DNA of 64,000 bases from Trichodelitschia bisporula (GCA_010356995.1 ML996710.1:92455-156454); one strand, 5' to 3'; counted from the first letter of the stretch, positions 4,458 through 39,100 are shown. A program made the numbers and translations. The notes: generated from the sequence alone by a model not told the origin.

Positions 4458-4579
4458 CATGACTGAGTTGCTTATTTGACTAGCAGTGGGAGGTGAGCTG
4501 ACTATATACCTCGCCAGGAGACGACCTCTGTCTCTTGGCTCCACTCCAGCCTCCCCAGGTTGCCGCTACAAATTCAGCA
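4458..4579 (-). mobile_element. Inverted 5' part of copia-A LTR
   Basis: Reverse complement aligns with the first ~120 bp of the solo LTR at 18590-18775 (TGYTGAA...GGCAACCTGGGG...GGTATATAGTC...TCATG). Confidence 0.85.
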
Positions 4580-4599
4580 AAGATCATATATGGCTGCTA

Positions 4600-4850
4600 G
4601 TTCAACCATGATTGATGGGTTGACGAGGAGCAAAGGAGTGGTTGTGGCTCATGGCAGAGCGAAGCTGCATGATAGCGAAACTGCATGATAGTGAAGCCGG
4701 GTGAGAAATTTGCCTCCAATAACCAGGTTTTTTCGGGTGTCCAAACAGCGTGGATCCAGCCAGAGGGGATGAGCATGGTGTCTCCAGCGGACAAATCAAC
4801 GTGATATCGCTCGTGGGTATGATTGGGGAGCCACGTAAACTTCAGTGAAT
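4600..4850 (-). pseudogene. JHD1: JmjC histone demethylase (JHD1/KDM2-like) fragment
   Basis: HVDLSAGDTMLIPSGWIHAVWTP motif; frameshifted and without the rest of the gene. Confidence 0.75.
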
Positions 4851-7382
4851 CATGGACAGACCTTCGGTCTAACATGTGATGCTGTGATGTTTCCATTGAC
4901 CACACATCTCCTTTTAACAGGTTATGAGCCCGGAATGCTTATTCTACACAATCAGCTAAGTATTCCTACAAAATGAACAAAGACCGATGAGATATCATGT
5001 ACAGCAGCTTAACCGCTGCTTCCACTGCGCACAAAATCGCATGAACTCAAAAATCTCAACTCAAACTCCTGGCCAACTCAGACATGGTCTGCCAAGGCCG
5101 TGAACGGATAAAAGCTAAGCAAAAAGAAAACAAAGTACCCCGCACTTGAGCTCCGTCATTCACCAATGAATCAGTCCTAATGGAATCACCTGATTTCTCA
5201 AAATCCGGGTGATTGGGGGCACCATCAACAGCCGGCCACCGTTCAACATTGCAGCTGAGTGCTGCTTGAGACCTCCGGTCAGCTCGAGGCGTGCAGCTCT
5301 CCAGCTGTCCGAGAGCTGCAATATGCAGGTGCTCAATTTCCTTGGGAAAGGCCGAGGCGAGCAACGATCATCTGCTCGAAACTTGCAGCCAGCAGTATGC
5401 GGGAAGACTTGTTGTCGTTCCATGCTCCACTGCCTCGACATATGAGGTGACGTTGATCATCTGTTCGAGGCACGCAACCATCATCTTCAACCTCCAATTT
5501 TGGTCCTGCAACAGTTCTGCCTCTATCCCCTTTACCTTCCACTTCCGACTGGCCCCAACCTTCCTCCTTTTCTCTCTTTGATCGAAAGGAAAGAATCTTG
5601 TCCCACCTCTTCTCTTGTCCCTGCATTCCTCCTGAAACACACCTTGCTGCAGAAACGACGCTCCCCGGACGAGCATTATGGCTGACCAAAAGACCCTTGG
5701 CGCCATCTCCGCTCTTTCGTCGTTCGGAACCGTCGCAAAGCTCGAATCATCAGTCGGATGGAACAAATGGCTGCGCGAAATCTCAGACCACCTCACCATG
5801 AACGGATATGGAGATCTGTTCACGCGCAACAAGTTCGAACCAGCCCAAGAGGGCTTGACGCCATTGGAATGGGACGCTAAAGGGGAGAGGTGGCAAGACA
5901 AGCAAGAGAGGCTTATGGCGGCAGAACGGGAAGAGCAGGCCCAGCAGATCCGGGACGAATACAAAACTGCCCTTCTGGCCAAGGCTCACCCCTCAGTCCC
6001 TGCTCCCAGCACTCCGGCTGCAGGTGAGAAGACTTTGTCCACATGGTCCCGTACCAGGGACGACCGCTCAAAGGCATTGGAGGAAAGCTCCTTCAACCCC
6101 AAGGAATCGGCATGATGAGACTCAACTGCAACTCGCGGGGAAGAAAGGTGCAACTCCTCCTGAAGGATGCGCTGTTCTGCCCCGATATGGGCGCCAACCT
6201 GATCTCCGTGTCACAAATCCTGCGCCGCGGTTCCAGGCTCACCATGACCTGGACAAAGGCCGAATTCCTCGGGTCTCAACCGCTCACCGCACGTCAAGAA
6301 TGCGGACTTTTCCTCCTCGACCTGTGGGAAGAGCCGGTTCAACATGGACTGCTCTCTCGCAAGGACGGCCTTTGCGGAGCCAAAGGAAAGACCCTCCCGG
6401 TTCAGCCGCCCACACCACGGCCCCGACCGGACCGGACCTACAAACTGTCTGATCCGAACATGCTCCTTTAGCACGACCGGATGGGCCACCTGGGCAAGCA
6501 GAACCTCCGCAAGCTCGCGCAAATGTCCTACGGCATGCTTCCAGTCAAGGAAGGTTGCCTCTGCGAGCCATGTGCACTTAGCCGGATGAGGGAAGTACCG
6601 CACAAGACGTCCATGGAGCGAGGGAAGTACCCTCTGGAGCTCATCCACACCGACATTGGTGGACCCTTCTCTGAGCCTGGACACGATGGATCGAAGTATT
6701 GGGCCACTTTTATTGATGACTACACCCAGTACGCATTTGCCGAACCCATCGAGCACAAATCCGACTTCTTCGGATGCGTGACGAACTTCCTTGAGCGACT
6801 GGAGCGGCCCGAACGGCGCTGCCACTGGATCCGGCTGGACAGAGCAGGAGAGAACAGGGACGGAGGTTTCCGCGCCTTTTGCGCCGACAGGGGCATCAAG
6901 GTCGAAGAGTCCGGCACTGAGCAACACCAGCAAAACGGCGTCGCCGAAGTGTACAACCGCATTCTCCTTGACAAGATCACCCCAACACTCATCCGCTCTC
7001 GCCTGCACCCGAAATGGTGGCCCGAAATCATCCGTGCCGTCGTGATCCTTCGGAATCTGAGCCCCAGCTCCGTCATAGACACCACACCCTACGAGGCTTG
7101 GTTTGGCGACAAACCCGACCTTTCATTCGTCCGTGTGCTTGGGAGCGACGGCATCGCCAGACTCCCGGACAATCGAAACGGCAGACGGGCCCGCAAGATG
7201 TTCGATGCAAAAGGCTTCCGGTGTAGGCTCTTGGGATTTCGAAGGCTCACGCAACTACATCATGGTCACTAAAGACGGCACCATCATGCGCACTCCGAAC
7301 GTCGTCTTCACGGAGAAGCGCTATCATCACGAAGGACTGGAACAGCCCATCACCTCACCCGAAGAAGCGTCAGAGCTTCCAT
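4851..7382 (+). mobile_element. Ty1/copia element A, forward arm: 3' part of LTR (4851-4919), PBS (4920-4931), deleted gag (5678-6000), GAG-pre-integrase and integrase (6043-7382)
   Basis: LTR end ...TTTTAACA then GGTTATGAGCCC; LL*HDRMGH, CEPC, LELIHTDIGGP, QQNGVAE, LSFVRVLG motifs; stops and frameshifts. Confidence 0.9.
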
Positions 7383-9351
7383 GCAGCCGTTGAGACATGT
7401 GAACTCTGATAACATCGTCCTCGGCCGAGCCATCTGGGGTTGCACCGTCCAGGGGCTGACTGAGTGAGCGGGCGCCGTTTGGGCTGACCGAATGGGATGG
7501 AGTTCCGCTTGGCAAAGGGTATGCAGGCGGATCAGTGCCGGCTTCCCAGTCTCCCCCACCATTTGCGAGTGGAACTCCATGCTGAGGTGGCGGTGCGGAT
7601 GGAGGCTCTGACGCTTCTTCGAGTGATGTGGTGGGCTGTTCCAGTCCTTCGTGATGATAGCGCTTCTCCGTGAAGACGACGTTCGGAGTGCGCATGATGG
7701 TGCCGTCTTTAGTGACCACGATGTAGTTGCGTGAGCCTTCGAATCCCAAGAGCTTACACCGGACACCTTTCGCATCGAAGATCTTGCGGGCCCGTCTGCC
7801 GTTTCGATTGTCCGGGAGTCTGGCGATGCCGTCGCTCCCAAGCACACGGACGAATGAAAGGTCGGGTTTGTCGCCAAACCAAGCCTCGTAGGGTGTGGTG
7901 TCTATGACGGAGCTGGGGCTCAGATTCCGAAGGATCACGACGGCACGGATGATTTCGGGCCACCATTTCGGGTGCAGGCGAGAGCGGATGAGTGTTGGGG
8001 TGATTTTGTCAAGGAGAATGCGGTTGTACACTTCGGCGACGCCGTTTTGCTGGTGTTGCTCAGTGCCGGACTCTTGGACCTTGATGCCTCTGTCGGCGCA
8101 GAAGGCGCGGAAACCTCCGTCCCTGTTCTCTCCTGCTCTGTCCAGCCGGATCTGGTGGCAGCGCCGTGCTCCAGTCGCTCAAGGAAGTTCGTCAGGCATC
8201 CGAAGAAGTCGGATTTGTGCTCGATGGGTTCGGCAAATGCGTACTGGGTGTAGTCATCAATAAAGTGACCCAATACTTCGATCCATCGTGTCCAGGCTCA
8301 GAGAAGGGTCCCCCAATGTCGGTGTGGATGAGCTCCAGAGGGTACTTCCCTCGCTCCATGGACGTCTTGTGCGGTACTTCCCTCATCCGGCTAAGTGCAC
8401 ATGGCTCGCAGAGGCAACCTTCCTTGACTGGAAGCATGCCGTAGGACATTTGCGCGAGCTTGCGGAGGTTCTGCTTGCCCAGGTGGCCCATCCGGTCGTG
8501 CTAAAGGAGCATGTTCGGATCAGACAGTTTGTAGGTCCGGTCCGGTCGGGGCCGTGGTGTGGGCGGCTGAACCGGGAGGGTCTTTCCTTCGGCTCCGCAA
8601 AGGCCGTCCTTGCGAGAGAGCAGTCCATGTTGAACCGGCTCTTCCCACAGGTCGAGGAGGAAAAGTCCGCATTCTTGACGTGCGGTGAGCGGTTGAGACC
8701 CGAGGAATTCGGCCTTTGTCCAGGTCATGGTGAGCCTGGAACCGCGGCGCAGGATTTGTGACACGGAGATCAGGTTGGCGCCCATGTCGGGGCAGAAGAG
8801 CGCGTCCTTCAGGAGGAGTTCCACCTTTCTTCCCCGCGAGTTGCAGTTGAGTCTCATCATGCCGATTCCTTGGGGTTGAAGGAGCTTTCCTCCAATGCCT
8901 TTGAGCGGTCGTCCCTGGTACGGGACCATGTGGACAAAGTCTTCTCACCTGCAGCCGGAGTGCTGGGAGCAGCCGCTCTCGAGGAGGTAGACCGATTGGA
9001 GTCGTTCGCCGAGTCGCTTGGCTTTGTGCGCCCTGACCTTCAGCGAGCTGTGCACACTCATGTACATCAAGGCCGGTGCATCCTCTTCGGTCCCAGATTC
9101 CCAGGCGTGGGTAAAGCCGGCGACTGGAGAATCGGCTTCTGTAGCTGGCGTTCTGGCTTGCCTCGCATCGCGTGTCCTTTTCTGTGAGTCTCTTTTTCGC
9201 TGCCGATATTTTGCCAGTTGCTTCCTTTTTGCCTGTTGTGCATGCTTGAGTTCCGGGTGCAATTCGAAGCAGCCGTCCTTGGTATGCCACGACCCTCCAC
9301 AATAATCGCAGCGGGGGATCGAGTGGTAAGCTTTGGCCAGTAGGGCGGTTT
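7383..9351 (-). mobile_element. Ty1/copia element A, inverted arm (gag zinc knuckle, protease, integrase)
   Basis: 7599-8972 is the near-identical reverse complement of 6000-7382; extra gag CDYCGGSWHTKDGC knuckle and LLESGCSQH protease-like motif. Confidence 0.9.
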
Positions 9352-9555
9352 TGTTGGCGGAAGTGCTCAAAGAATTGTGTGAGAAAAGATTGATTGCCCA
9401 GCTTGTTACCTTCTCTAGTTTACAGAATGAACAGTACATATGTCCGTGATGGTCCTCCAGGATGTTTCTGAATTTCATCGGACTCCGGCGTCGTCCATCT
9501 TCGCCACTTCGGTGTTCGCCGTGCCAAGCCTGCCTTTCGGGTATCCCGACATTGG
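9352..9555. mobile_element. Truncated copy of the 214-bp LTR family
   Basis: Matches 15540-15753 and the reverse complement of 35961-36174; last ~11 bp and TSD missing. Confidence 0.85.
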
Positions 9556-10499
9556 CTGGCCGACTGCAAAGACGTCACCGATTTCGCGCAGCGGCTCGGT
9601 CACGCATACCACGAACTTGTTGCCCTTGACGCTTCCGTCGAACTGAGCGAACACTTCCTTGTCAACAAGTTCCTCAACGGCCTCGGCGGAGATTGCGGCA
9701 ACTTCATCACAGCCTTCGAACAGAACCACTGCCTTCTCCCGCTGCGAAACGCGGGGAAACTCATCACCACGGCCGCAGTGTCCTTCAGTACTGTCCGTAA
9801 GACCGTTCAAGAAGAGGAGCACAAGAAGAAAGTGAGAAGGGAAGACTCCGCAGCATTTCTATCCGGAGCGATGCCTCCAAAATCATCCATTCGAAGAAAG
9901 GAGTGCACAGATTGTGGGCGTTCAGGCCACACGACGGACGAATGCTGGGAGACACACCCTGAGCTCAAGAAGGCGCACGACATCAAGAGGGAAAGGAAGA
10001 AGGGAAAAGAGGCGGAGAGAAGAACGGACAAGAGGGCAAGGTTTGAGGGTGGGGACGAAGGCGAGGAAGATAGAAGAAAGTCGGTGATTCTGGCACGTCA
10101 CCAAGACCATTGTCACGGATCTGGCTTCCTCGCTGTTGATGACAAGAACGCCGACGGATGATGTGTTTGCAAACGCTGTTACCGAGCGGACGGCGATTGG
10201 GTGTTCTTGGGTGCTTGACTCAGGCGCCTCGACACACATGACCTGCCGCTTGGACGACTTCGTGGACGACTACGAAGCATTCCCACCAGGGAACGTGCAG
10301 ACAATCAACGGCGTCGGCGGGTCGCGTCTGCGAACGGCGGGGAGCGGAACCGTGCGGGTGCAGTGCAGACACGAGGGGAGAATGGTGGGGTTGCGCCTTG
10401 AAAAAGGTCTGTACTGTCCAGAGCTTGGGGCCAACCTGGTTTCCATCTCCCGGTTGCTGCAGTCTGGGGCCCAGGTTGTGTTGGAAGGTGCCCAAAGAC
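9556..10499 (+). mobile_element. Ty1/copia element E remnant (gag C-terminus, protease); target of element B
   Basis: CTDCGRSGHTTDECWETHPEL zinc knuckle; WVLDSGASTHMT protease; cut at the LTR starting 10500. Confidence 0.85.
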
Positions 10500-13199
10500 T
10501 GATGGCGGTGGCATACGACAACCTCGCCACATCATTGCGCGATCAACAGTGGCGTCGGCAAGCAGAAGCCGACTGTGACTCACAATTTGTAATAAGTGGC
10601 AAAAGGGAACAGGCTGGGAGATTCCAGAGGACAATCACTTGGATATACAAACATAGTCTCTATCGTTGCCAGAAAATCAATCAAGTCAATCCTTTCTCAC
10701 ACAAGTCTCTTGGATACCTTCCGACAACAGGTTATGAGCCCGGAACGCTAAGCGTACCCAAAGCTTGTGAATCGATTCAACCAATCATATCGTCTCAACG
10801 AACGCCACCATCTCCAGGACGACTCTTCGAATAGTCAAAGCGGAACCTCTCCCCAGTCACAGCTACAAGATGGCCAAAGATACTGGAGTGCCCAAATTGA
10901 AGGGCCAGTCGAACTGCCGACAATGGTACATCCGACTGAGAGCATACATGATGGACAAAGGCTCCTGGGACGCCGTCAGATTCGCCCCTTACAAGAAAGA
11001 AACAGCTCGACAAGCATCCACCCCGTCGCCAGATGTTGCAACAAGTTTGCAACAACCGAGGGAAGGCGACGAGGACAGAGCTTTGAAGGGCCACTACGCC
11101 GCCCTACCTTACGACGAAGGCTTGATTGAAGCGGACAGCGACGAGTGGATATACCATCCCAAGAACGACGCCGCGATCAGTCATATCCTCCAACACTGCG
11201 AGGACACACCAGCCAACAAGATCGAAGGAGTGAGAGCCGCTCGAGACGCAATGGACATCCTGATGAAGCACTACGCCGTGCCGAACGAAATCGAGAAGTT
11301 CCGGGTCGCAGAAAGACTGTGGACAACCACCTACACCGGAGAAATGTCCAAGTACACCGATCAGTTTGCAGATACCTGGAAAGACATCAATCGTCTGAAG
11401 ATCGACCTCGGATTCCTAGTCCGCTCACTCATGGTTCACCAACTGGGAGAACACTACGAGAGCTTTCAAGAGCGAAAGAGGAAGAGTGGAATCAGCGAGA
11501 TCTCAATTGAGGATCTGACGAGCCAACTGCTGGAAGAAGAGCTAGCCTTGAAGAGGAAACAACCCTCAAAGGTTCTCGCCATACGAGACAGGAGGCAGCC
11601 TCGCAGCACAGGCAAAAGAAACAGCAGCACCTGAACCCACGACGACGCTAGTTGCGCGCACTGCAAAAGCAGAGGTCCTGAGAATTGCTGGTACAAAAAT
11701 CCTGACAAAGCCAGATACGTGGCGCGAGGATTTATGCAACAGTTTGTCATCGACTATGACCAGACGTATGCAGGAGTCGTCCGATCAACATCAGTACGAG
11801 CAATATTTGCACTGGCCGCTTTGTACGACCACGACATTGTGCAACTCGACTTTGTTACGGCATACCTGAACTCAAACCTCGACGAAGAAATCTACGTCAG
11901 GCAGGCGCCAGGATACGTCCAAAATGGCAAGGAAAACCTGGTGTACAAGGTCAAGAAAGGCCTGTACGGTCTCAAACAGTCAGCCCGCGAGTGGGCAAAA
12001 AGGCTCACAACATTTCTGACAAAAATCGGATTCAAGCCACTTACGGCGGACAGCAACGTTTTCGTCAAAGGCAACATCCGCACGGGACTGACCATGACAG
12101 TCTACGTAGACGACATCAAGCTCATAGGCAGCGACAAATCCGCCATGAAGCAGGTCGTCAACCAACTGAGCAGGGAGTTCAAAACGACAAACCTAGGAGC
12201 CATCAAGCACTACCTAGGAATGGAGATCACACGCGACCGCAGAGCAAGGACGATCACTCTTAGTCAGAAGGCATACCCCGAGAGAATCCTCGACAAATAC
12301 GGGTACAGCCGCAACGGCCGCAACATCAAAACACCAATGGTGACAGGCCAACGACTCGAGCCATACGACGGCATTGCAACCGATACAGCAAGAAACGAGT
12401 TCGCCGCACAATTAGGCTCCGTCATGCACGCAATGACCATGACACGTCCAGACATCGCCTTCGCAGTCTCCTCCCTTGCACAACACATGAAGAACCCTGG
12501 ACCAGAGCATTGGAATGCGCTCAAAAGGATCTTCCTCTACCTACGCAGTACGAACAACTATCATATTCTGTACGGTGGAGTGAGCGACGACAAAACGATC
12601 GAACCTGCTGGATACACAGACGCCAGCTTCGCCGAAGACAGTGCAACAAGACGCTCAACAGGGGCATACATATTTACCCTGAACGGAGGACCCATCAGCT
12701 AGACATCGAAACGCCAATCAATCGTCGCCCTATCGACAACAGAGGCCGAGTACATTGCTATGTGCCAAGCGATCAGAGAAGCGACATGGCTCAAGCAGCT
12801 GCTTATGGAATTGGGCTTCAACCAGGAAGGCAGAGAACCCATCAAAGTTCATGCAGACAACCAAAGCGCAATAGCTCTAGGAAAGAATCCAGAGTTCCAC
12901 AAGCGCAGCAAGCACATCGACGTCCAATACCACTATGTCCAAGAACAGGTGCAAGCTGGACGGATCACAACTCCATACCTACCAACTGCACAGATGGTCG
13001 CTGATGGACTTACGAAGGCACTCAGTCTTGAAGTGCATCTCCGCCTCATCGATCACTGCAGGCTTGACCCAAGCAGAATAAACGGAGGGAGGAAAGAATG
13101 ATGCTGCGAGCTTGAGAGGGAGTGATGCCGGTGGCATATGACAACCTCGCCACATCATCGCGTGACCAACAGTGGCGTCGGCAAGCAGAAGCCGACTGT
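10500..13199 (+). mobile_element. Ty1/copia element B: 5' LTR 10500-10729, PBS 10730-10741, gag 10870-11700, internal deletion, RT/RNase H 11710-13101, PPT, truncated 3' LTR 13123-13199
   Basis: TG...CA LTR repeated at 13123 after the GAGAGGGAG PPT; KARYVARGF, LYGLKQS, YVDD, YTDAS, STTEAEY, KHIDVQYH motifs; no protease or integrase. Confidence 0.92.
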
Positions 13200-13548
13200 T
13201 GGTCGCGCGATGATATGGCGAGGTTGTCGTATGCCACCGCCATCAATCTTTGGGTACCTTCCAACAACACAACCTGGGCCCCAGACTGCAGCAACCGGGA
13301 GATGGAAACCAGGTTGGCCCCAAGCTCTGGACAGTGCAGACCTTTTTCAAGGCGCAACCCCACCATTCTCCCCTCGTGTCTGCACTGCACCCGCACGGCT
13401 CCGCTCCCCGCCGTTCTCAGACGCGACCCGCCGACGCCGTTGATTGTCTGCACGCTCCCTGGTGGGAATGCTTCGTAGAGTCGTCCACGAAGTCGTCCAA
13501 GCGGCTGGTCATGTGTGTCGAGGCGCCTGAGTCAAGTACCCCAGAACA
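13195..13548 (-). repeat. Inverted duplicate of 10202-10550 (element E protease region plus start of LTR B)
   Basis: Reverse-complement alignment with scattered substitutions and small indels. Confidence 0.9.
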
Positions 13549-16500
13549 TGTTGGAAGGGACCAGAAGGATCGGATTGATAATCACGGAGTTCGAGTGGGT
13601 TCTAGTTCTTTCTGTTTACGCAAGCATATTCGCCACTCTTTATGTATATATATATCAACAGACAGTTAGGTTGCAGGAAATCGACCAACTCATCGCAATA
13701 CTCCAGGACCCTAAAGTTACAACAGGTTATGAGCCCGGTGAGCGCGAGGCTACCAGAAGAATAGTTGTTTAGGTAGAGTCAAGTTGGTTCCACGATCTTC
13801 GGAGGTCATGCACTGCCACCGCCACCGCCACCATGGCCAGCGAGAGGTCACGTGTTATATTCACGCTCAAGTCGACAGCAGACTGGCGTCTATGGGATGC
13901 AGCCATTCGGGACGAGCTCGAGTCGAATCTCCTATACACGATCGACGACAAGGAGGAGCGATTGAATATCGGCAGGGACGACATACCAGCAGAAGCGAGA
14001 AAGAAAGTCGACAACGCCGCAGCGAGAGCGATACTGCGGGCGAACCTCAGCATCGAGCAGGCCGTATACATGGAAGGATTGACGGCAGCGAAGGACATCT
14101 ACGAGACACCCAGGAAGATTCACACAAGCCAGAGCGAGGCCCGAGTATGGCAGCTAATCCAACAGCTCATCAACATAATTGGCATGACGGACAAGACGGT
14201 CGACGGGAAGTCGCAGCGACTGGTGCGAGCACAGATGAAATTGAACAAGATGGCTTTGAAGGACATCAGCGTGTCGAAGACGTTCCTGTCAATCTTCCTT
14301 ATCCAAAGCATGGGGCCTGAGTACGCGACGACGATCGAGATCATTCAGAATCAGGACAAGGTTGATTTTGACGACATTGTGTCGAAACTGAAAGCGAAGG
14401 AGCTGGAATTGTCGAACGGGGCGGAAGGAGCGGGAGAATCAGCGTATTTGGCCAGGATATAGCCAGGAAAGAGACGATGCTTCCATTGCAAGAAGCTGGG
14501 ATATATGAAGCGAGAATACCGCAATTGGCTAGCTACGGACGAGGGCAAGGAATGGTACAAAAGCCAGGAAGGCCAGAGGTACCGGCAAAGCGACGAGAGG
14601 TCGCAGGATTGGCCCGCGAATCACACGAATCGTCAGGAAGACGAAGCAATGAACCGCCATGGAGGCGACGAGGAAACTTTTACGCAAAGCAGCCGAGGAC
14701 GAGCTAAGCGACTACATCTCAGACGCGGAAGTGAATGTCGCGGAGACAGCTCTAGGCGGACGACCGGCGTGGATGCTGGACACGGGTGCAACGAGGCACA
14801 TTTGCAACATATGAGAAGCGTTTATCGACGAAACGCTGAAGAGAGTTCACGGCCGAGTGAGAGTCGCAAACAGCAACTGGATGAAAGTGGACTGGATGGG
14901 AATCGCCCAGGTCAAGCTGCCAGGAGGTCTGCTAAGTTACGGGAAACTCTCTATTGTTTTGAGAGTCCGTTCAACCTGGTGTCGCTGGGCCAGTTGAGTG
15001 ATTGTGGAGTGACATTCTCGGGGAACGCACAGCAGATCAGACTCATTTACCAAGGCAAGGAACTGGCCACGGCAGAAAGACATCGGAAACTCTATCAACT
15101 GAAATCTGTTCGGTTGAGAGGAGTCATTCTGTCAGCAGACGCGCAGCTCAGTCTGAAGCACGACGAGATCATGCACAAGCGACTCGGCCATATGGGACAA
15201 TCCCGCGAGGCGAGAATCCATGAGGTAGCCGACGGGATACAGCGAAAGATCAGCCATCAAAGAACCTGCGACGCGTGCAGGCGAGCAAAGACGACAAAGC
15301 GGATCGGAAAGACGCCAATTGAGCCAGTAGAGAATTGCTTGAACGAGTTCACATCGATTACTGGGGGCCAGCGCCGGAACCATCGCTCGACGGAAGAACC
15401 CTGATGATGACGATCACGGATCAATATTCTCGGAAGATTTGGACATTCCATCCGAAGGACAGAGGAACAATCACGTTCCTAGACTGCTTCGACGCCTGGA
15501 GGGTGAAAGCAGAGAAGGAAGTTGGGCATTATGTCAAATTGTTGGCGGAAGTGCTCAAAGAATTGTGTGAGAAAAGATTGATTGCCCAGCTTGTTACCTT
15601 CTCTAGTTTACAGAATGAACAGTATATATCCGTGATGGTTCTCCAGGATGTTCCTGAACTTCATCGGACTTCGGCGTCGTCCATCTTCGTCACTTCGGTG
15701 TTCGCCGTGCCAAGCCTGCCTTTCCGGGTAACACGACATCGGGTATGCCGACACAAATGCATCGGGATGGGCAATGCCGGAGAGTTTACATCAGAAGGCG
15801 CAAGAAGATATTTTGGGAAACTGGAGATCCAGGTCGAATACACGGTGCCACATAATCTGCATCAGAACGGGATTGCTGAGCGAGCGAATCGATCCATCAT
15901 GGAGTCGGCAAATGCGGTGCTGAAGGACGCCAACCTGAGCGGAAAGTTTTGGGTCCTTGCTTCAAGGGCAGCGGCCTATCTTAGGAACCGGGCACCGGTG
16001 AGAAATGCGCCAGACGGAAAGTCGCCTGAAGAACACTGGTCACGGAAACGACCTTGGGTACAGCACTTGAGGGTGTTTGGGTGCAAGGCATATGTACACG
16101 TGCCAGACGTAAAAAGGAGGAAATTTGATGATAAGGCCTGGAAGGGGATCTTCGTGGGATACACCTAGTCCGACTCTATTTGGAAGATCTACAACCCTGC
16201 AACAAGAGAGGTCAAAAGGGTAAGCTTGGTCACTTTCGTAGAAACAGAAAGGGCCGCGGAACCGAACGACAGAGATATCAGGAAGCACGACAGCTTCGGA
16301 GGCTTGGACATACAGCCAGCATCTACTGCGTTGGGCAAGGGCGACGCCGGATTCGGACTCCGAACGTGACACCATCAGGGTAAATACGGGACAACCCTAT
16401 GGACAGAGGACACCAAGCGAAGAAGCCGCAAGAGAGGATACAAGACAGGAAGGAGTCTGGCAGGCCTCGGCGTTCAACGGCAAATTACCAACGAGGAAGA

Positions 16501-16620
16501 TTCAGTCCAACACAACCCCAGAACGACGAGCATGAACATATCGCCGTCGAGGAGGAGTGCTCTGGGATCGCCGACGAATGTGCTCTATCGGCGATGGGAT
16601 GAGTGTATGAACCGTCGTCC
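13549..16620 (+). mobile_element. Ty1/copia element C, forward part: 5' LTR 13549-13724, PBS 13725-13736, gag 13833-14520, protease, integrase
   Basis: TGTTGG...ACAACA then GGTTATGAGCCC; CFHCKK, WMLDTGATRH, HKRLGH...CDAC, RVHIDYWGP, QNGIAER, LRVFGCKAY motifs. Confidence 0.92.
15540..15753. mobile_element. 214-bp solo LTR inserted in the integrase of element C
   Basis: TGTTGG...CCGACA ends; TSD CAAAT on both sides. Confidence 0.92.
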
Positions 16621-17728
16621 ACGTAGATGGCAATGATCACTCCTTTCCTGAGTACGGCACAGGGGTCATAGTTTGACTGAACGAAACCTTGCTCCTTGAG
16701 GTACGTGGTGAGCGTCTCATTCCATTCCCCTGCTGACTGTTTAAGTCCGTATAGACTTAGGAGTATTTGGAGGTAGTCTCCTCCAAGGTCGTGTCCATCG
16801 ATGAGGTCAAATCCTTCCGCGGCCCTCATATATATCTCTTCCTGAAGAGGTGCTGCGAGATACGCATTGTCGACATCCGCTTGGTGTACGATGAGTCCTT
16901 GAAGTGCAGCCATTGCAAAAAGTGGCCGCAGCGTATCGTATCTGACCGTTGGCGAGTACGTTTTGTCGAAGTCAATTCCTTCCTGCTGCGAGAACCTTTG
17001 AGCGACGAGACTAGCCTTGTAGCTAGCGATCGAACCATCTTCGTTGTATTTGACCTTGAAGACCCCTTTGGAACCAACCGGTCTCCTCCCAACGGGTAGG
17101 CTGGTGCTTTTGAAGGTTACGCATTGGATGTGAGCTTGAAGCTCTCGGACTATCGCTTCGATCCAGTCTTTTCCGTGCACGGGGTCGGATATTGCTTCCT
17201 CGTAGGACGACGGTTCATACACTCATCCCATCGCCGATAGAGCACATTTGTCGGCGATCCCAGAGCACTCCTCCTCGATGGCGATATATGCATGCTCGTC
17301 GTTCTGGGGTTGTGTTGGACTGAATCTTCCTCGTTGATAATTTGCCGTTGAACGCCGAGGCCTGCCAGACTCCTCCTGTCTTGTATCCTCTCTTGCACTT
17401 CTTCGCTTGGTGTCTTCTGTCCGTAGGGTTGTCCCGTATTTACCCTGATGGTATCACGTTCGGAGTCCGAATCCGGCGTCGCCTTGCCCAACGCAGTAGA
17501 TGCTGGCTGTACGTCCAAGCCTCCGAAGCTGTCGTGCTTCCTGATATCTCTGTCGTTCGGTTCCGCGGCCCTTTCTGCTTCTACGAAAGTGGCCGAACTT
17601 GCCCTTTCGACCTTTCTTGTTGCGGGGTTGTAGATCTTCCAAATAGAGTCGGACTCGGTGTATCCCACGAAGATCCCCTTCCAGGCCTTATCATCAAATA
17701 TCCTCCTTTTTACGTCTGGCACGGGTAC
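16614..17728 (-). mobile_element. Element C inverted arm carrying N-terminal RT
   Basis: 17205-17728 is the reverse complement of ~16094-16620; spacer encodes EPSSYEEA...LVAQRFSQ...LYGLKQS...IYVDD. Confidence 0.9.
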
Positions 17729-17995
17729 CGTCCGAGGGTTCTCTTCGTGGAAACTAGCAGTGGCTGGTGTTCGAGCCAAAATCAATGTATCAATTGATCT
17801 CTGACTGACTAGCTCGACCTCTGAATGAGATCGGGAATGAGCGACTATATACACAACTTCTGACTTTCAGTATCTTCCATCGATCTGACCAATTTGTCAG
17901 GAAGAATACTCCAGATACTCAATTTGTCATCATAGAAGATTCTAGATCGTCATCCCGCAGTAGCTGGGTGTATACCGTCATTGCTCAGTCTGACA
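17729..17995 (-). mobile_element. LTR of copia family D (267 bp), no TSD
   Basis: Near-identical to 32901-33167 and 37769-38035. Confidence 0.9.
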
Positions 17996-18589
17996 GGTTT
18001 CCACGTCGAAGGCAGGGCCAGTAGCCGTGCAGTCTGACGTCGTCGTTTTGGAGCTTGCTGATCCGGTTATGCTACTCAGATCAGCGTCCGTATTCCACAA
18101 TCCTGACCTTGGATGTCAAAGAAATGTGGGGATATCACGTTCCTTGAATGATAATCACTTTATTGGCCACTGGCAGACCGTAAAGAGAAGAGATTTGAAT
18201 GATGGGTATTGATGAAAAGAAGAGGAAGAGGAAGAGGAAGAGGAGGAGGGAGAAGTAAAAAATGACATATATACCCCGTATCCCCGCTCTTCCCACGCCG
18301 AAGACTCAAATTCACTGGCAAGTCACACGCTCCGAGCCATAGATTCATACTGAGCTCCGCATCCGTACTGAAATCCGCCCCCGCAGTGAATTCAGCGGCC
18401 GGTGCGGAGACTCAACCCCGCGGCTGGACGGTGCGGTCCTGTGCGGGGTCCCGGGCCGGTTACTTGCCGACGAGTTATGAAGGCAATTGACTCATGCCCA
18501 GGAGGGCCGGTCAAACTCCTTTCCAAGGGAGATATGTGACCAATGGTTCAACACATGGTGAATCTTGCTGTGGAGCGGGGTTGAGGAAC

Positions 18590-18775
18590 TGTTGAACTAT
18601 GGCGGCAACCTGGGGTGGCTGGAGTGGAGCCAGGAGACAGGGGTCGTCTCCTGGCGAGGTATATAGTCCGCTCACTTCCCACTGCTAGTCAGTTAAGCAA
18701 CTCGTTCATGGAGAGACCTTCGGTCCAACTTGTGACGCAGTGATGTTTCCATTGATCACGCATCACCTTTCAACA
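18590..18775 (+). mobile_element. Solo LTR of copia family A (186 bp)
   Basis: TGTTGAA...TTCAACA; TSD GGAAC; homologous to the split LTR at 4458-4919. Confidence 0.92.
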
Positions 18776-19078
18776 GGAACAAAGGGCAGGCCATTTGGTT
18801 TGTGGGCCTCATGGCAATATTTACGGACATGTGTCAAGGCCGACTAAATTACGAAGCCGGATGGGCCGCGGGGAGCACACCAGAGTAAATTGGAGTTTTG
18901 TTCTCAGTAGATACAGTGAGTATATATGGGAGCTTTGCCCTTGAAAGGCCGACAATTCCTTATCTCGACGCCTCTGCCTCGGAATTCGTGTTTCGGCGTT
19001 CTAATCGCCCCTGTCACTTTTTATATAGTCAGTACGCCGCTCTGTGGTGGAGACCTTCGTCCGGGCATAGTGAAACAC

Positions 19079-30238: not shown

Positions 30239-30505
30239 TGTTAGACGGATTCCCATTTGTTACAGCCTTCTGATATTGTAAGTTCCTATATCACTTCGCG
30301 CTCGGTATCTTTGTAGCCGGTATCCGTTAGCGCTCGGGATTGCTTACCTCCGTTGTCTTGTTTCATCGTATCTTTGGCTCGACGCCACTCCTGTTTCATA
30401 TTTCCTATATAGTACGAGTTGCCCACATGGTACACTCGACAGTTCAGTCTACGTCAATCAACAGAAACCTTTGTTTCATCTGTTCTCAGCTTCTACAGTC
30501 CAACA
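30239..30505. mobile_element. Solo LTR family F (267 bp)
   Basis: TGTTAG...CCAACA; TSD ATTGT. Confidence 0.92.
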
Positions 30506-31808: not shown

Positions 31809-31880
31809 TGGACTCGCCGGGAATCGAACCCGGGACCATCCGCATGCTAAGCGGATATTATACCACTAAACCACAAGCCC
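31809..31880 (-). tRNA. tRNA-Ala(AGC), intronless
   Basis: GGGCTTGTGGTTTAGTGGTA... anticodon arm TCCGC-TTAGCAT-GCGGA, GGTTCGATTCC T-loop, acceptor stem; T5 Pol III terminator at 31786-31790. Confidence 0.95.
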
Positions 31881-33073
31881 AGTTGATGAGATTTTGCGGC
31901 GGGCGGCAAGTCAAATTTCAATTGTGCGCCGTCGGCTGCGGATGGACCAAGTGAAGGGGCGCGAAGGCGGCGCAGCCCGCTGTGGGTTAGGGTTAAGATT
32001 CCGGGATGTGAGTGCGGGGAACACGCCGGCTGACTTGGCGCATGGGGAGCGGACGTCGCTGAAGAGATAGAATAAACACGAGCGGGTGTGATATCGGCGA
32101 GGTGATGTTGCAATACATGATGGTGTCAAAGCGCAGTGATGGACTGATGGTGGGAATGGATGTGCTGGAGTTGAGGAAAGTATGTGGGTTAGGGAAGCTG
32201 TGGGCGAGACTGCTGACGATGAACGTAGGCTTCGTAGGAGGGCAGCAAGAGACTAAGTGGCATTATGACATCTTGAATGTGATACAATGCTATGTGATGG
32301 TGTGTCGCCATCTCAATAACGCCTCGGACCAATTTAGAGTGGATCCCGGCGAGAGACCGCGACAGTGGGAAAGGTACACCCCCCTTCTTTGACAGAGGTC
32401 ACTTGAGCTTATGATGGCTAGAGCAGCTTAAGAAGCTCCCGCACGCATTCCCGCGCTTGAGACGGCATACCAGCTATTGGCAGTATATCTACACCGCCGT
32501 CGCCAACTTCGACTAAGCTCAGGAGAACCCGGGCTTGTGGTCAAGTTGGGGACCGACGGGTTGCTTGAACGGTGACCGCTTTATCGCGGAGTCCTGAGAA
32601 GGCCCCCCAATTGCAAAAACACTGTGCGGGACGCCGGAAGTAGAGAGCTTTCGTAACCGCAAGCTGCGGTGAAATTCTTGCTTTTTGAAGCCTTTGCTCT
32701 TTTGAGCCTTTGAGGGCGGTGCTGTAGGGGAATTGTAGAGAAGGGGCTGGAGGAAGGGGAGGGGGAAAGGATTACCCTTAAAGTCTTGCAAGTGTAGCCC
32801 GCTCTCTTTGTCTTTGGATTTGGGCATTGGACGGCCTCGGAGGCAGGGCGTCTGGGCCTCCTTGTATTCTCAGCACATGCTTCACTGGATTTGACCCTTT
32901 TGTCTGGGGGTTCTCTTCGTGGAAACTAGTAGTGGCTGCTGCTCGAGCCAAAATCAATGTATCAATTGATCTCTGACTGACTAGCTCGACCTCTGAATGA
33001 GGTCGGGAATGAGTGACTATATACACAACGTCTGACTTCCAGTATCTTCCATCGATCTGACCAATTTGTCAGG

Positions 33074-34407
33074 AAGAATACTCCAGATACTCAATTTGTC
33101 ATCATAGAATATTTTAGATCTTCATCCCGCAGTGGCTGGGTGCATACCGTCATTGCTCAGTCTGACACACCCCCCCAGCCAGGCACTGCTTTCCTGTTTA
33201 AGAGTCGAGGACTCGGTCTGAGATGTCCACAAATCCTAGTTGCTTGACAAAAGTTTGATGCTTTTGCGTCGGTAGAGCCTTCGTAAGGCCATCTGCTGGC
33301 ATGTTGGCTGTCTCAATCCAATGGATTTGAATTCTGCCAGCCTGAACTTCTTGCCGAAGCCAATGGTGGTTTATGTCCACATGTCGTAGCTTTGTGGTAA
33401 ACTGAGGGACATTTGAAGTGAGAAGACGAATCGTTTGCTGATTCTCGCATCCGTTCGAAATCGCATGAAAAAAACCAAACCACATCAACGAAAAGAAGCA
33501 CAAACAACAAAACACCCCCTGGACACCGGAAACCAAGGAAAAAACCACGCCGCCAGAGAAAGACACGCCGCAGCAGACATACGCCGACCACCAAAAGGCG
33601 AGAGAGACGCAGCAAACCGCGAACAGAAAACCACCAGAAGTCGCAAGAGAAGCAGCAAAACCTCCGAAAGCTCCACAAAAGCCAACCGCAAAGCAGCGCC
33701 AGCCCGCAGACAGGAAGATACGATACCGACACGGAACGCGAACGCGAACGCGAGCAATCGAATAACCCGCTAAGAAACATGCAAAAACTTTCAAGTCAGA
33801 AGCGACACACACTCACCAAACTGCACAGCAGCGAGGAACAAGACCGAGCGAGAAATCGTCAAGCCGTACAAAGGCCAAACAAACCGGAACTCCAAGAAAC
33901 AGAAAGCAGCCACAACAGAGACCACGAAAGCCGAACCACACGCAAGAGCTCACACTGCAAAAGAAACCGACTAGCCCCAACCAAGCCCCCACGCCAGCAG
34001 CAAGCACCCAGGCCACGCGATTTCGAACGGATGCGATAATCAGCAAACGATTCGTCTTCTCACTTCAAATGTCCCTCAGTTTACCACAAAGCTACGACAT
34101 GTGGACATAAACCACCATTGGCTTCGGCAAGAAGTTCAGGCTGGCAGAATTCAAATCCATTGGATTGAGACAGCCAACATGCCAGCAGATGGCCTTACGA
34201 AGGCTCTACCGACGCAAAAGCATCAAACTTTTGTCAAGCAACTAGGACTTGTGGACATCTCAGACCAAGTCCTCGACTCTTAAACAGGAAAGCAGTGCCT
34301 GGCTTGGGGGGTGTGTCAGACTGAGCAATGACGGAATACACCCAGCCACTGCGGGATGAAGATCTAAAATCTTCTATGATGACAAATTGAGTATCTGGAG
34401 TATTCTT
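33074..34407. repeat. 391-bp inverted repeat (33074-33464 / 34017-34407) around a 552-bp loop
   Basis: RNase H C-terminus, PPT and LTR start present in both orientations with a few mismatches. Confidence 0.93.
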
Positions 34408-35960
34408 TCTTTACTGCGTCCATGAAACCATGTGTTGGTGACGCTGCAGTTCTTTCCAGTCCTTCGGAGGCGGAGGGAGGCCATCCTGGTGTAGCCTCAT
34501 CGGTTTCTGGCTGATGCCTGCGCTGAAAGTGGTAGGCAGAGAGCTGGTTGACTTGCTGGAGCTCGGCAAGATATGCCTCCTTTCTCTTTCTGCTTCTTGG
34601 TCCTTCAACAATATTCGAAGCGGATATGCTACTGCCGATGTCTCGCGTTGCCTGCCTTGGTTTCGATGCGGGCATCGGCGTTTCTTCTGGTGAAGGAAGG
34701 TAAGGCTCGTAAGGCTGTCGTTCTTCTCGCTGCGACGTGTCGACGACTATGACGTCTCGGATGTCGTCTGAGCTGTCGGTTTCGCTCTCGGTGTCGGTTT
34801 CGCTTTCGCTTTCTTGTTCCTCATCGAGAGTGACGTCTCGGGTCGAGATGACTCTCTTCTGGCTCGGGATCCAAATGCGAAAGATGTTCGTCGAGTCGTA
34901 TCCTACTAGGTAGCCAATCGCTGCTCTCGGCTCCAGTTTCTCTGTTCGTGGGATTTTCCTGGTCAAAGGATACGCCCTGCATCCATAAATTCGCAGATGC
35001 GCGATGCTCGGTGTCGAGACTGGTATCGCAAGTGCTTCTTGCAGGAATTGTACAGGTGTTCTCCAGTCAAGGCCTCTTGTCGGCGTCCTGTTGAGAAGAT
35101 ACCCTGCGGTCTTGTAGGCTTCTGGCCACAGGTCTGCCGGCAGTCGTGATGCGATTTGCAAGGCTCGTGCTTTCGCAATTATCACCCCCCCAGCTCGTTC
35201 AGCACCTCCATTCTGTGCTGGTGTGTAGGGAGCTGATATCTCTGTTATGATACCTTGACGTCTGGTCCACTCTCTGAAATTGTTGCCGATTGATCTCTCG
35301 CTGTCGCTGTGCAGAACCTGTATCTTTCGTCGATACCGTCGTTCGATCATGGTCGCAAACTCCTTGATGGTTGCCGTGATCTGTCCTTTCTTCGGAAAGG
35401 TATACACGAAGTGCATTCGTGTGTTATCGCAGAGGAAGTGCAAAACCCGTTCATCGCCATTGTAGGCTGGTGTCATCTGAATAAGGTCAAGGTGAATCCT
35501 CTCGAATGGCTCGGTTGATCGTGTTCGCTGGCGACGCGAAATGATCTCTTTTGCCTTTGAGACGCTGCATGTCTCGCATTGTGTAGTCGATGGTGCTCTT
35601 CCTTGGACCTCAACGCCTGTCGTGGCCTGGTCCAGGTGTTCGATTGCCTCGGGGCTTGCATGGCCTAGTCGCTGATGCCATGTGTCTGCGGTGGCCTTTG
35701 GCGTAAGTGGCTGTGCTGAACGAGCTGGAAATGCCTCCAATTCTGAGTCCCGTTGCTCGTTGTGCTCCAGTACGTATTGGCCGTAAAGCTGTTTGATTCG
35801 GCAGAATGTCGTGCCGTTCAGGGTAAGGCGGTTCGTTGCGGTATCCCATTGAATGCCCTCAGCATTGAGTCGCCTGAATGAGACAAGATTCAGCGGGAAA
35901 TCGGTGACATAGGCCACATTCGCTAGCTTCAATGTCTGCGGACCTACGGGGTGGTCAACG

Positions 35961-36174
35961 TGTCGGCATACCCAATGTCGGGATACCCGAAAGGCAGGCT
36001 TGGCACGGCGAACACCGAAGTGGCGAAGATGGACGACGCCGAAGTCCGATGAAATTCAGGAACATCCTGGAGGACCCATCACGGACATACACTGTTCATT
36101 CTGTAAACCAGAGAAGGCAACAATCTGGGCAATCAATCTTTTCTCACACAATTCTTTGAGCACTTCCGCCAACA
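35961..36174. mobile_element. 214-bp solo LTR inserted in the protease region of element D
   Basis: TGTCGG...CCAACA; TSD CAACG. Confidence 0.92.
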
Positions 36175-39100
36175 CAACGGTGACGTGAACTGTCCCGAAT
36201 CCTTCAATGGGTAAATGCTGCATGCCAGCAGCTAGGAATTGGTGTTACGAAGTGGAAGGTCTGTATTCCACGAATCGAGAGAGAGTTGCAAACGTGGGTG
36301 GTCGCTCCTGAGTCGAGGATGAAGCTGTCATGCAAATGGGAGTCGGCGGTCGCATAGGCTTTCTTAAAGCCGGCCGTTTGCAGGTTGTCCCTTGGAGCCT
36401 TTTCCTTCTCTTGCTTCTGTATTCTCTCGATGATTTCACGAAGCCGTGGGTTCTTCAGCTTCTCGTCAATCTGGCGTTGTACCTCTGGGTTCGGCTGCCA
36501 GTTCTTCTTCTTGTTCCGTACCGTCTCGATGAGATACGGGCATTGCCTGAACCTATGATCTTCGCCGCATACGCATGCCTTCTTCCTGTCGTCTTTCCCA
36601 TGCTCATGCTTGATCGTTTGGGTGAGTTCCTGTCCCTGGAAACTCGCTAGGAAAGCGTTGTGCGACGCTGCCTTGGCCTGGGCCTTGGAAATTCGCTGGT
36701 CATTTCGGAAGTACTCGATGATTTGGAAAATGTCCGGTACAGGCTGTCCTTGGTATTGCAGAAGCTGCAGGCTGTTCTTCCAGAATCCTGAAAACTGCGG
36801 TGCCAGATCAGAGACGGCATCCAAAAAATCATGAAGCGGATTGCCATCTGAAACCTCGGGCGGGTTGAGGTCTCGGCATTTCGTGTAAGCTTCTTCCCAG
36901 CGATTGAGCCAGGTATCGATTGCTTCGCTCCTTGGCCGTTTCTTGAGCTGCTGATAGAGGTTGCTCATCTCAATCTCTCGTGCTCGATCGGACGGTGCGA
37001 CTCGTTGCTTTAGTGCTAAGAGCATGTCGTAAGCGCTGTTGCAGTTGAATGTGTACGTCAGAAAGCCTCTGGAAATCGTTTCTTGAATGAAGACACGGAT
37101 GCCCCCTAGAGCGGCTTTCTTGCGGTCGTATTCCGTCAGATGCCTCTTGTGCTGCAAACGAAGGAACTTCAGCCCTTCCTTCTCGTCTGCATCAAGCTGT
37201 GCGAAGCTGGTCTTCTGAGGATTGACGGTGTTGGGCATCGGAACTTCGGGTTCGCTGAGGACCGGTATCAAGCTCGCTGGCGTTGCCGGGTTCACATAGT
37301 CCCAAATGTCTCCTGAAATTGCTTTGGTCTTGATGACTTCAAGCCAGTCATCCCAGTCGGCATGGCAAGCAAGCACGACCGGCGTCTTTCGGACTTGCTG
37401 AGCCACCATGGTTTCGTTTGTCGTTTGTCGGATGGTCAAATGCGTGACCTTAATAGGCTGTCGAGCCTATGTTCGCTCTTTCTCGGACTGTCGTTCCCGG
37501 TGAGGGAATCCAGAGAAATTCGGGCTGAAGTGGCGGGTGTTGTGGCTTTGCCGCTGTGGCAAAGATCGTCGGAGGTATTGCCGGAAATGGTAAGAATCGC
37601 CGTGATTCTACCTCGGTGGCAAAATTCGTCGTCGTGGCGCAGATCGTCGCGTTTTGCCGTCGTTGCCAGAATCCCTCGGGGATTCTATCGCATTCGCAAA
37701 AGAATCGTGGTGCCAGGAATCGGGTCGTCGTGCTGGGCTTGCTAGCAAAAGCAACCCGGGCTCATAACTGTCTGAGGGTTCTCTTCGTGGAAACTAGCAG
37801 TGGCTGCTGCTCGAGCCAAAACCAATGGATCAATTGATCTCTGACTGACTAGCTCGACCTCTGAATGAGGTCGGGAATGAGTGACTGTATACACAACGTC
37901 TGACTTCCAATATCTTCCATCGATCTGACCAATTTGTCAGGAAGAATACTCCAGATACTCAATTTGTCATCATAGAAGATTCTAGATCGTCATCCCGCAG
38001 TGGCTGGGTGTATACCGTTATTGCTCAGTCTGACACTTTGTTATTCTTTTGAAACGAGTATCTCACAGTCGCTGGTGATGTAGTTTTTGTCCTAATCAAC
38101 GACAGTGTCACTGGCAACCGTGAATACCTTTCAAGTGTAATGGTTCAATTCAAGCAATATTGCGTTGAGGAGCGGAAGAGTCAGTAAAGATAGGATGCAA
38201 GTGCTCCTCTACGCCATCTACGAGGGTAGGCGCTACCAGGAGCTCTGTCAGCTAGCACCGGCTCTAAGTAGAATTCCTCGCTCATTGACGATGGTATTCG
38301 CCAAGAGCGTCCTTGACACGTGAAGGCTCCAGGCCCTGGAGGGTCCCGTGACGGACTGATGCAACGGGTTCAGCTTCACGCCAGACAGCCCACACCCTTC
38401 TGGCTGCAAGTCACTCACCGGCCTCGAAACTTTGGTATACGTGCTGTGTACCGCTTCCCCGTCCACTGACTGCATCCCGAGTCGCATGAATGCCGTGAAA
38501 CGGGCTCCTTGCTCATCCGCCCGCATCGCTCCGAAAACGAAGAGGTAAGTGCACCGCTGTCAAGCTCGCAAACGCCTAACTTGTGTCAGGAATATCGAGC
38601 GGCCGAGGAGTTGAATACGTGAAGATGCGATCCTTCATCCTCCTCATCAACCCACTAATGGCCCGACATTGCCCGCGCGGTCTCTGTCACTGCCCGTGGG
38701 GTTTCTCTCACGGCCTCTATGCGGCGGATCCAAATGACGGATCCTTGTGAGAGAACGATATCCTTTTGCGAGGACTGTTTCCAGCCTCCGTTCATTTGTG
38801 GGATTCTTTTTGCTGAGAGGATAGGGGCATCGAGAGGCATGCAAGGGAGGACTTCACAAGTGAGTCATCGCACTGGGTGTGGAAACCTATACTGACATTA
38901 GCTTTAGGGTGTGTTCGATTTCCACCAGACAAAAATTCACATCCTTCATCTGCCTTTCGTCACTGCACCGGGCCAATGCTTCGCCTCCATGTTTGATGTC
39001 TCGTCCTTGATGCTCTTGCCTCAAAGCACTCCAGTTACTTCCACCCGCCACCTCATCATCGCTTCAATACAGGTACGCACTGGAACAATAGCGGCGCTCG

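Follow-up and report, generated by a model that had tools for sequence, protein, structure and literature searches.

We describe here a 64,000-nucleotide (nt) stretch of the Trichodelitschia bisporula genome (GCA_010356995.1 ML996710.1:92455-156454; hereafter the window, whose positions are used throughout) in which four inverted duplications, A, B, C, and D, lie inside degenerate Ty1/copia elements, with a separate copia element, E, situated within B. The copia anatomy was derived from Pfam matches to 150 stop-to-stop frames of at least 90 residues (3980-39746), and positions in the polyprotein were assigned by tblastn with three full-length copia polyproteins found by homology (P0003, P0006, and P0018). 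All of the copia sequence is confined to two nests, at 4.4-18.8 kb and 32.9-38.0 kb, between which there are host-like frames (EF-hand, Tos1) and two solo long terminal repeats (LTRs). The domains found are Retrotran_gag_2, Pol_BBD, gag_pre-integrs, rve, SH3_retrovirus, and RVT_2, and integrase is encoded upstream of reverse transcriptase, the order that defines Ty1/copia elements and which is confirmed by the tblastn placements. The elements are not DIRS-like, in that Pfam identifies rve integrases and no recombinase domain, and self-BLAST shows the LTRs to be direct repeats. Protein identities are merely 25-42% (25% between the integrases of A and D, 36% between the beta-barrel regions of A and B, and 42% between the reverse transcriptases of C and E), which agrees with the proposal in an earlier note on this DNA (the original prediction) that the elements belong to different families. 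The primer-binding site of copia and Ty5 is complementary to the anticodon stem-loop of initiator tRNA-Met, and a primer-binding motif, GGTTATGAGCCC, directly follows the LTR in four elements, at 4920, 10730, 13725, and 37768 (minus strand). The LTRs end in TG...CA, and all six solo LTRs of the window have perfect 5-bp target-site duplications (CAAAT, CGTTG, AACAC, ATTGT, GGAAC, and AAGAT). LTR divergences within the window are 4-7.5%, and no copy is intact, every one being truncated, internally deleted, or folded back.

The four structures are genuine inverted duplications. Inverted repeats were located by a listing of repeat pairs of at least 100 nt and by self-BLAST of the window, and both recover the four at the positions originally reported; seven of the 12 inverted pairs of this length in the window compose A-D. 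By self-BLAST, A pairs 6000-7382 with 8972-7599 (97.6% identity over 1383 nt), B pairs 10202-10576 with 13548-13169 (93.4% over 381 nt), C pairs 16094-16623 with 17728-17201 (95.3% over 531 nt), and D pairs 33074-33467 with 34407-34014 (98.0% over 394 nt), and the boundaries are sharp at all eight arm ends. The internal regions have no direct repeat in the window, and the repeat listing and self-BLAST agree that LTRs are the sole direct repeats in both nests. The arms carry private substitutions, as had been noted before, numbering from nine to 24 per pair (24 in A, 18 in B, 21 in C, and nine in D), with three, four, four, and zero indel events respectively; because the differences are mostly substitutions, palindromes arising from read errors are unlikely. 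The arm-to-arm divergence ranges from 2.3 to 4.8% and comprises at least two age classes. Repeat-induced point mutation (RIP) was considered as the cause of these differences, but is ruled out both by the transitions between arms (n = 47), only 10 of which fall at CpA/TpG sites, against 16 at CpG, and by the RIP indices, where TpA/ApT is 0.32-0.60 and (CpA+TpG)/(ApC+GpT) is 1.14-1.31, values that lie far off the usual thresholds.

Contigs from several sequencing runs were mapped onto positions 4401-19400, and what we say of them covers the matches listed. Run X1 is DNA from the same organism as the window. Run X2 is from the same organism in a different study, and its label as RNA, like that of run X4, is only a guess. 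Run X5 provides contigs from a different organism, organism B. Among the matches listed, X1 contigs with no differences from the window cover 4537-4903, 8840-9379, 10694-11999, 16591-17234, 18261-18622, and 18747-19157. Summed X1 contig depths relative to single-copy sequence, which are depths and not copy numbers, are approximately 150-fold for the W-family LTR, 55-fold for the X-family LTR, 15- to 40-fold for families A and B, and one- to two-fold for C and E. The published T. bisporula genome is described in Supplementary Table 5 of PMC7082219 as an AllPaths-LG assembly of 270-bp and 5.2-kb Illumina libraries. The window probably derives from a short-read assembly of this kind, and its repeat-rich parts call for caution for that reason.

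Element A begins with a left end (4850-5999, plus strand) containing the last 70 nt of a 5' LTR (4850-4919), a primer-binding site (4920-4933), a leader, and the N-terminus of gag. These 70 nt are all that is left of the LTR, which is broken as was first thought. The gag ATG is at 5678 and codons 1-107 (5678-5999) extend to the 5999|6000 junction; at position 6000 the sequence jumps to approximately residue 303 of the polyprotein. The left arm (6000-7382, plus strand) encodes the protease/beta-barrel region, integrase, and the SH3-like domain (approximately residues 303-750). It is followed by a 216-nt spacer (7383-7598, minus strand) through which the open frame of the minus-strand copy continues, and by the right arm and its outward continuation (7599-9350, minus strand), in which the arm itself occupies 7599-8972 and the continuation reaches approximately residue 236 at 9310-9350. 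The minus-strand copy is closed by a family X LTR (9352-9564, plus strand), whose flanks (GGTTT on the left, GCAAA on the right) are not a matching duplication. An X1 contig with no differences covers 8840-9379 on the right side of A. Contigs of other copies diverge before 7384 (X2 and X6) and behind 6001 (X1 and X2), and the junctions near these positions are therefore peculiar to this locus. Judged by those contigs, the junction overlap is 2 nt at the outer junction (6000) and zero at the turn. Paralogous contigs from the same genome differ from A at 52-53 positions in 715-720 nt, or approximately 7%.

Three other readings of the sequence around A were rejected. The segment 4458-4579 is not an inverted piece of the A LTR but part of a solo LTR of family W (4439-4579, minus strand), a separate insertion just upstream of A with its own perfect AAGAT duplication. 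An X1 contig joining 5789 to 13550 raised the idea that the block 5790-13549 is an insertion in the gag gene of C; the gag frame is unbroken across 5789|5790 and 13549 is the start of the C LTR, so that the contig comes from another locus. The GGTTT common to the flanks of the LTRs at 9352 and 17995 is taken to be a chance resemblance, since the sequence past 17995 is unlike A.

Fold-back B contains a second element. The B fragment (9565-10499, plus strand) contains gag from its middle onwards, with a zinc knuckle, and the beta-barrel domain, and positions 10202-10499 are B's share of the left arm. The LTR at 9352-9564 had been taken for the 5' LTR of B, but is foreign to it, since mid-gag follows directly and there is neither a primer-binding site nor a target-site duplication. 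The loop, too, had been assigned to B and is instead the nested element E (10500-13199, plus strand), with a 5' LTR (10500-10729), a primer-binding site at 10730, and a 3' LTR of approximately 77 nt (13123-13199); the first 51 nt of the E LTR form part of the left arm of B. By tblastn, E has an internal deletion that joins gag residues 1-263 directly to reverse transcriptase/RNase H residues 1019-1472, followed by a polypurine tract, and it lacks protease and integrase. An X5 contig carries a longer E 3' LTR than the window copy, and X2 contains a collinear 2515-nt contig of E at high depth with 13 differences; E may thus represent an expressed non-autonomous deletion derivative with more than one copy. 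The B right arm (13195-13548, minus strand) reproduces, as reverse complement, the first approximately 54 nt of the E LTR and the adjoining B flank 10202-10499, and since it holds both the E LTR start and the B flank, the template of the inverted copy already had E inserted in B. The turn is located at the hairpin of the E LTR (a 6-bp stem and an 8-nt loop): the E 3' LTR enters its own hairpin, crosses over at a 5-nt microhomology (ACTGT) to the 5' LTR in complement, and continues into B. The LTR hairpin that had been predicted here at approximately 50 bp is present, at roughly 60 bp (13123-13250).

In fold-back C, the plus-strand copy (13549-16623) contains a 5' LTR (13549-13724), a primer-binding site at 13725, gag, protease, and integrase to approximately residue 900, and includes the left arm (16094-16623, plus strand), such that LTR and primer-binding site lie upstream of both arms, in accord with the earlier description. 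A solo family X LTR with a CAAAT duplication is inserted at 15540-15754 and is absent from an X5 contig and from one X1 contig. The loop (16624-17200, minus strand, 577 nt) encodes reverse transcriptase residues 900-1108 of the minus-strand copy and the right arm (17201-17728, minus strand) approximately residues 724-900; the minus-strand copy as a whole thus spans residues 724-1108, from 17728 down to 16624. The LTR adjoining the right arm (17728-17995, minus strand) closes this copy, belongs to family Y, that of D, which amends the earlier description, and has no matching target-site duplication. A 644-nt X1 contig (16591-17234) crosses both loop/arm junctions with no differences, extends 33-34 nt into arms that differ from one another (including an indel at 16620), and has a depth of 232, compared with approximately 230-285 for other unique pieces. 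Across the bins of the C arms and loop the X1 depth is 175-266, approximately single-copy. Because a single-copy contig spans both loop junctions, fold-back C is real. The overlap at the turn is up to 9 nt, as the match of an X5 contig reaches 16615, past the arm end at 16623. Of the junction microhomologies claimed earlier, the 5 nt in B (ACTGT) can be read from the window, while the value for C depends on this contig of another organism.

Element D lies on the minus strand. Its 3' end (32901-33467) includes the 3' LTR (32901-33168), a polypurine tract (a G7 run), and the pol C-terminus, with the arm at 33071-33467. A 546-nt loop (33468-34013) follows, and then the inverted arm (34014-34410, plus strand), which carries the C-terminal part of pol, the polypurine tract, and nt 1-98 of the LTR, all in the sense opposite to that of D. 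The 5' part (34411-38036, minus strand) contains the 5' LTR (37769-38036), a primer-binding site ending at 37768, a 420-residue gag/protease frame (36207-37466, minus strand), and integrase with the SH3-like domain to approximately residue 788 (34577-35932, minus strand), and is interrupted by a solo family X LTR (35962-36178) with a CGTTG duplication. The proposal that a 5' LTR and primer-binding site precede both arms holds for those at 38036-37755, although the LTR at 32901-33168 is the 3' LTR of a minus-strand element, and what the arms contain is not gag and a primer-binding site but the C-terminal part of pol, followed by the polypurine tract and 98 nt from the start of the LTR. The plus strand of the loop is rich in A and C and the loop is not palindromic, for which reason we dropped the idea that both arms continue into it in diverged form; the RNase H region of the inverted copy may extend into its right part, although the tblastn matches there are weak (22-27% identity) and possibly compositional. 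We compared the first 96 nt of the LTR in the three D copies and an outgroup. Two derived bases are common to the inverted arm and the 3' LTR, while the 5' LTR and a further copy of the LTR retain the other state. The arm and the 3' LTR have two private changes each, one of those in the arm adjoining the junction, and none of the sites in these 96 nt groups the inverted arm with the 5' LTR. This pattern indicates that the duplication occurred after insertion, unless the two LTRs of D stem from different insertions; in the sense of D their flanks are CAAAG and AAAGG, which is not a clean target-site duplication.

The structures suggest that the duplications arose once the elements were already integrated, through DNA repair by fold-back or template switching, and that they are by-products whose read-through transcripts could form hairpins, a reading to which we assign a probability of roughly 55%. 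The elements would first integrate into the chromosome and the duplications arise later in chromosomal DNA, where a broken or stalled 3' end could pair with a short complementary stretch of its own or the opposite strand and copy backwards, until a second junction, or recombination at an LTR, ended the inverted copy. Related models based on template switches during replication reportedly appear in PMC10766183 and PMC10622511. The duplications would then be repair by-products in repeat-rich DNA, and as a side effect read-through transcripts would include both arms. From the structures we infer this repair mechanism, together with the full extent of the transcripts and any dicing of them. The spacer is contiguous with one copy in A and C, where it continues that copy's reading frame, and the D loop is so in part, whereas the B loop is the nested E; a continuous spacer frame such as in A and C is expected if the strand ran on and then turned back. 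The two LTRs at which the inverted copies of A and C end, neither of which has a target-site duplication, are likewise expected if recombination at repeats resolved the rearrangements. Evidence for chromosomal timing comes from B and D only, and A and C carry no information on it. Of the two origins proposed earlier, a host process and a reverse-transcriptase template switch, the host DNA process fits better.

Several observations weigh against this interpretation. Only the C junctions are present in independent contigs, among the matches listed in the mapped interval, and a chimeric join in A or B may have occurred because of the Illumina/AllPaths-LG assembly and the roughly 15-40 copies suggested by contig depth. 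The imperfect duplication at D (CAAAG vs. AAAGG) allows for two insertions, which weakens the timing argument there. The inverted arms are 0.35-2 kb, and fold-back inversions selected in yeast are usually much longer. Four events in 34 kb are many for a neutral process, and the treatment of X2 as RNA starts from a guessed label.

An alternative in which the nascent cDNA folded back through template switching by reverse transcriptase, and the rearranged cDNA was then integrated, is doubtful. It would account for every event being inside a retroelement, the gag to reverse transcriptase deletion in E is a typical error of the enzyme, and D between its two LTRs reads sense, antisense, sense, as from two switches in one cDNA. 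But the D arm and 3' LTR share the two derived bases that the 5' LTR lacks and the D duplication is imperfect, the inverted arm of B copies a B flank that is missing from E's own RNA, and A, B, and C have no second LTR and so no integrase-competent unit. None of A-D is a rearranged unit bounded by two LTRs with a target-site duplication in which arms and LTRs are coeval. Priming of plus-strand DNA at an internal polypurine tract was also considered, in which case its 5' ends would coincide with the ends of the inverted copies, but there is no polypurine run beside either 16094 or 10202, which speaks against a displaced plus-strand template. Insertions of the same family in opposed orientation, head-on or nested and later trimmed by deletions, are improbable. 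Nested insertions are frequent in these clusters (E within B, solo LTRs within C and D), and antisense self-insertion of a copia element is known in Arabidopsis from the account in PMC11624286; none of the turn junctions coincides with an LTR end, however, the arms are 95-98% alike in contrast to the approximately 7% difference among A paralogues of the same genome, and the B arm repeats a unique insertion junction.

The least probable explanation is that a short-read assembler joined paralogues in the wrong orientation. The libraries and assembler given in PMC7082219 are of a kind where this could occur, contig depth indicates multiple copies of families A and B, and the turns of A and B, like the whole of D, are known from the assembly. 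Both C junctions, however, are contained in one single-copy X1 contig and again in X2, from another study, and each C arm has approximately single-copy depth. The private substitutions in the arms also argue against misjoining, as do the contigs without differences over 4537-4903 and 8840-9379, and the perfect duplications of all six solo LTRs indicate good fine-scale accuracy.

The question of whether these structures are transcribed depends on the nature of X2, which is very probably RNA because of its uneven depth, its contig of C gag-integrase, and the precise removal of a 45-nt intron. Its depth varies from 17 to 66,000 across bins, with X1 far less variable and X2/X1 ratios of 0.05-7, and the gag-integrase contig (13873-15568, depth 247) has no differences from the window and ends 30 nt inside the solo LTR. 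The 16591-17234 piece occurs in X2 with the same span, 33-34 nt into each arm, except that it lacks exactly 16701-16745. This 45-nt segment of the C loop has the form of a canonical fungal intron on the plus strand, GTACGT...CTGAC...AAG, in which GTACGT is the 5' site and CTGAC the branch motif; its ends are GT..AG on the plus strand only, and it is antisense to the copia reverse transcriptase gene. Since an RNA-like spliced contig crosses the loop, a hairpin-capable plus-strand transcript of C, running from the left arm through the loop, where it is spliced, into the right arm, is likely. The X2 contigs stop at the repeated arms, and the X2 depth over the C arms and loop (17-44) is approximately one-tenth of that over the C 5' part. 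Such a transcript could fold into approximately 500 bp of double-stranded RNA: for the unspliced plus-strand RNA of 16094-17728 the predicted minimum free energy is -1257 kcal/mol, compared with -544 to -575 in five shuffles, and 514 of the 701 predicted pairs are arm-to-arm. The corresponding value for a minus-strand D RNA is -945, against -430 to -458 when shuffled.

As the original prediction suggested, these loci might be retained silencing triggers, similar to Mu killer of maize, reportedly described by Slotkin et al. in 2005; LTR-driven or read-through transcripts would form hairpins that are diced to small RNAs repressing the matching copia families, and selection would keep the locus as a small analogue of a piRNA cluster. 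We regard this as unlikely. The probable RNA contig crosses the C loop into both arms and is spliced, and intron-spliced hairpins are said to be strong silencers in plants, in work attributed to Smith et al. in 2000. In C and D, an LTR with a promoter precedes both arms, fold-backs are present in all four of the clusters that contain internal copia sequence, and the lack of a RIP signature would make another defence useful. Mu killer itself, as presented in PMC11624286 and PMC9868043, is a natural inverted duplication that silences its family. On the other hand, the arm divergence (2.3-4.8%) is of the same order as the LTR divergence in the window (4-7.5%), and the folded segments differ (protease-integrase, integrase-reverse transcriptase, and pol end with LTR start) and do not converge on one target, for example a promoter. 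In the run that is probably RNA, families A and E still reach a very high depth, as if they continued to be expressed, and the organism B contigs of the C and E families, which represent collinear copies at other loci, run straight across the C turn and the E 3' LTR. Still more speculative, and correspondingly less probable, is the broader idea that in this fungus, whose repeats here lack RIP, recurrent fold-back turns unrelated copia families into intron-containing hairpin genes that are transcribed from their own or nearby LTRs and feed RNA interference. If true, the fungus would carry an inherited record of its transposon families that updates itself, the fungal equivalent of Mu killer or piRNA clusters. 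We treat silencing as a lead with one supporting fact, and this applies to C only.

Other features of the window include a pair of solo LTRs of one family (19079-19345 and 30239-30505) that are 94% identical and bracket 11 kb of host-like sequence; these are not the ends of a single 11-kb element, as they have their own duplications, AACAC and ATTGT. A W-family LTR end of approximately 70-80 nt is present at 4600-4938 (minus strand) and 18695-18777 and recurs inverted at 54716-54797; a frame over this stretch has a JmjC/Cupin_8 match (E = 3.7e-5) that falls short of the Pfam cut-off, and is either a captured gene fragment or chance. Outside the copia nests there is a 214-nt inverted pair (40250-40463 and 46367-46580, 96% identical, 5.9 kb apart), with no copia or Pfam match between or beside its members in the frames tested, which could be DNA transposon ends or a duplicated promoter. 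The window also contains a GC-rich tandem array with a 13-nt period at 2708-2941 (12 overlapping copies listed), a second array at 50787-51461 with three repeats of 217-241 nt that are 70-89% identical, and a host gene encoding an AMP-binding enzyme at 55769-57448 (minus strand), whose product is 96% identical to a protein assigned to T. bisporula, a Dothideomycete that lives on dung.

Natural inverted duplications of transposons are a classic route by which a genome first learns to silence a family, and the well-documented cases of duplication-triggered silencing known to us come from plants and animals. Our literature searches for natural hairpin loci of fungal retrotransposons gave plant and animal cases and general papers on fungal RNA interference, with no fungal case in the material returned. 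The window offers four such duplications close together in a filamentous fungus whose repeats here bear no RIP marks, and for one of them there is evidence of a spliced transcript that crosses the loop. If small RNAs arise from the arms, the locus would offer a natural and tractable example of how hairpins trigger transposon control in fungi; otherwise it is a clear record of fold-back repair dismantling retroelements, and a caution for transposon annotation.

The elements themselves are conventional Ty1/copia elements in the order of gag, protease/beta-barrel, integrase, reverse transcriptase, and RNase H, in their TG...CA LTRs, and in their 5-bp duplications, but unlike intact members of the group, every window copy is truncated, internally deleted, or folded back. 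Among known rearrangements, the closest are the fold-back inversions of Saccharomyces cerevisiae, in which, according to the sections of Li, Putnam and Kolodner (2020, PMC7467729) on their formation, short inverted repeats become exposed by resection, the single-stranded DNA forms a hairpin from which synthesis is primed, and the products are stabilised by secondary, mostly homology-mediated rearrangements at repeats. The window resembles the yeast products as reported in PMC7467729 in having a spacer between the inverted copies, a turn placed at a short inverted repeat of natural origin (shown here for B), short or no microhomology at the other junctions, and inverted copies that end at repeats without target-site duplications. 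The window differs from what is given for yeast in that its arms are only 0.35-2 kb long and its events are old (2-5% divergence), have become fixed in a wild genome, and are densely clustered in retroelements, with no selection scheme or mutant background. With Mu killer, as outlined in PMC11624286 and PMC9868043, the window shares a natural inverted duplication of part of a transposon with a promoter upstream and a possible hairpin transcript, but Mu killer is a derivative of a maize DNA transposon with proven small RNAs and heritable trans-silencing, whereas the fold-backs here are of fungal copia retrotransposons and have one probable loop-spanning transcript (one of the four fold-backs). 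Endogenous plant pararetroviruses offer a further parallel, in that the relevant parts of PMC9868043 describe rearranged, inverted segments that are proposed as hairpin sources with small-RNA evidence, and these too are retro-derived sequences with small inverted conformations that are transcribed into potential hairpins, although they represent a different element class in a different kingdom. The antisense self-insertion in Arabidopsis presented in PMC11624286 concerns the copia element EVD. Set against these systems, what we observe in T. bisporula is a known kind of rearrangement at unusual density, and not yet a new system.

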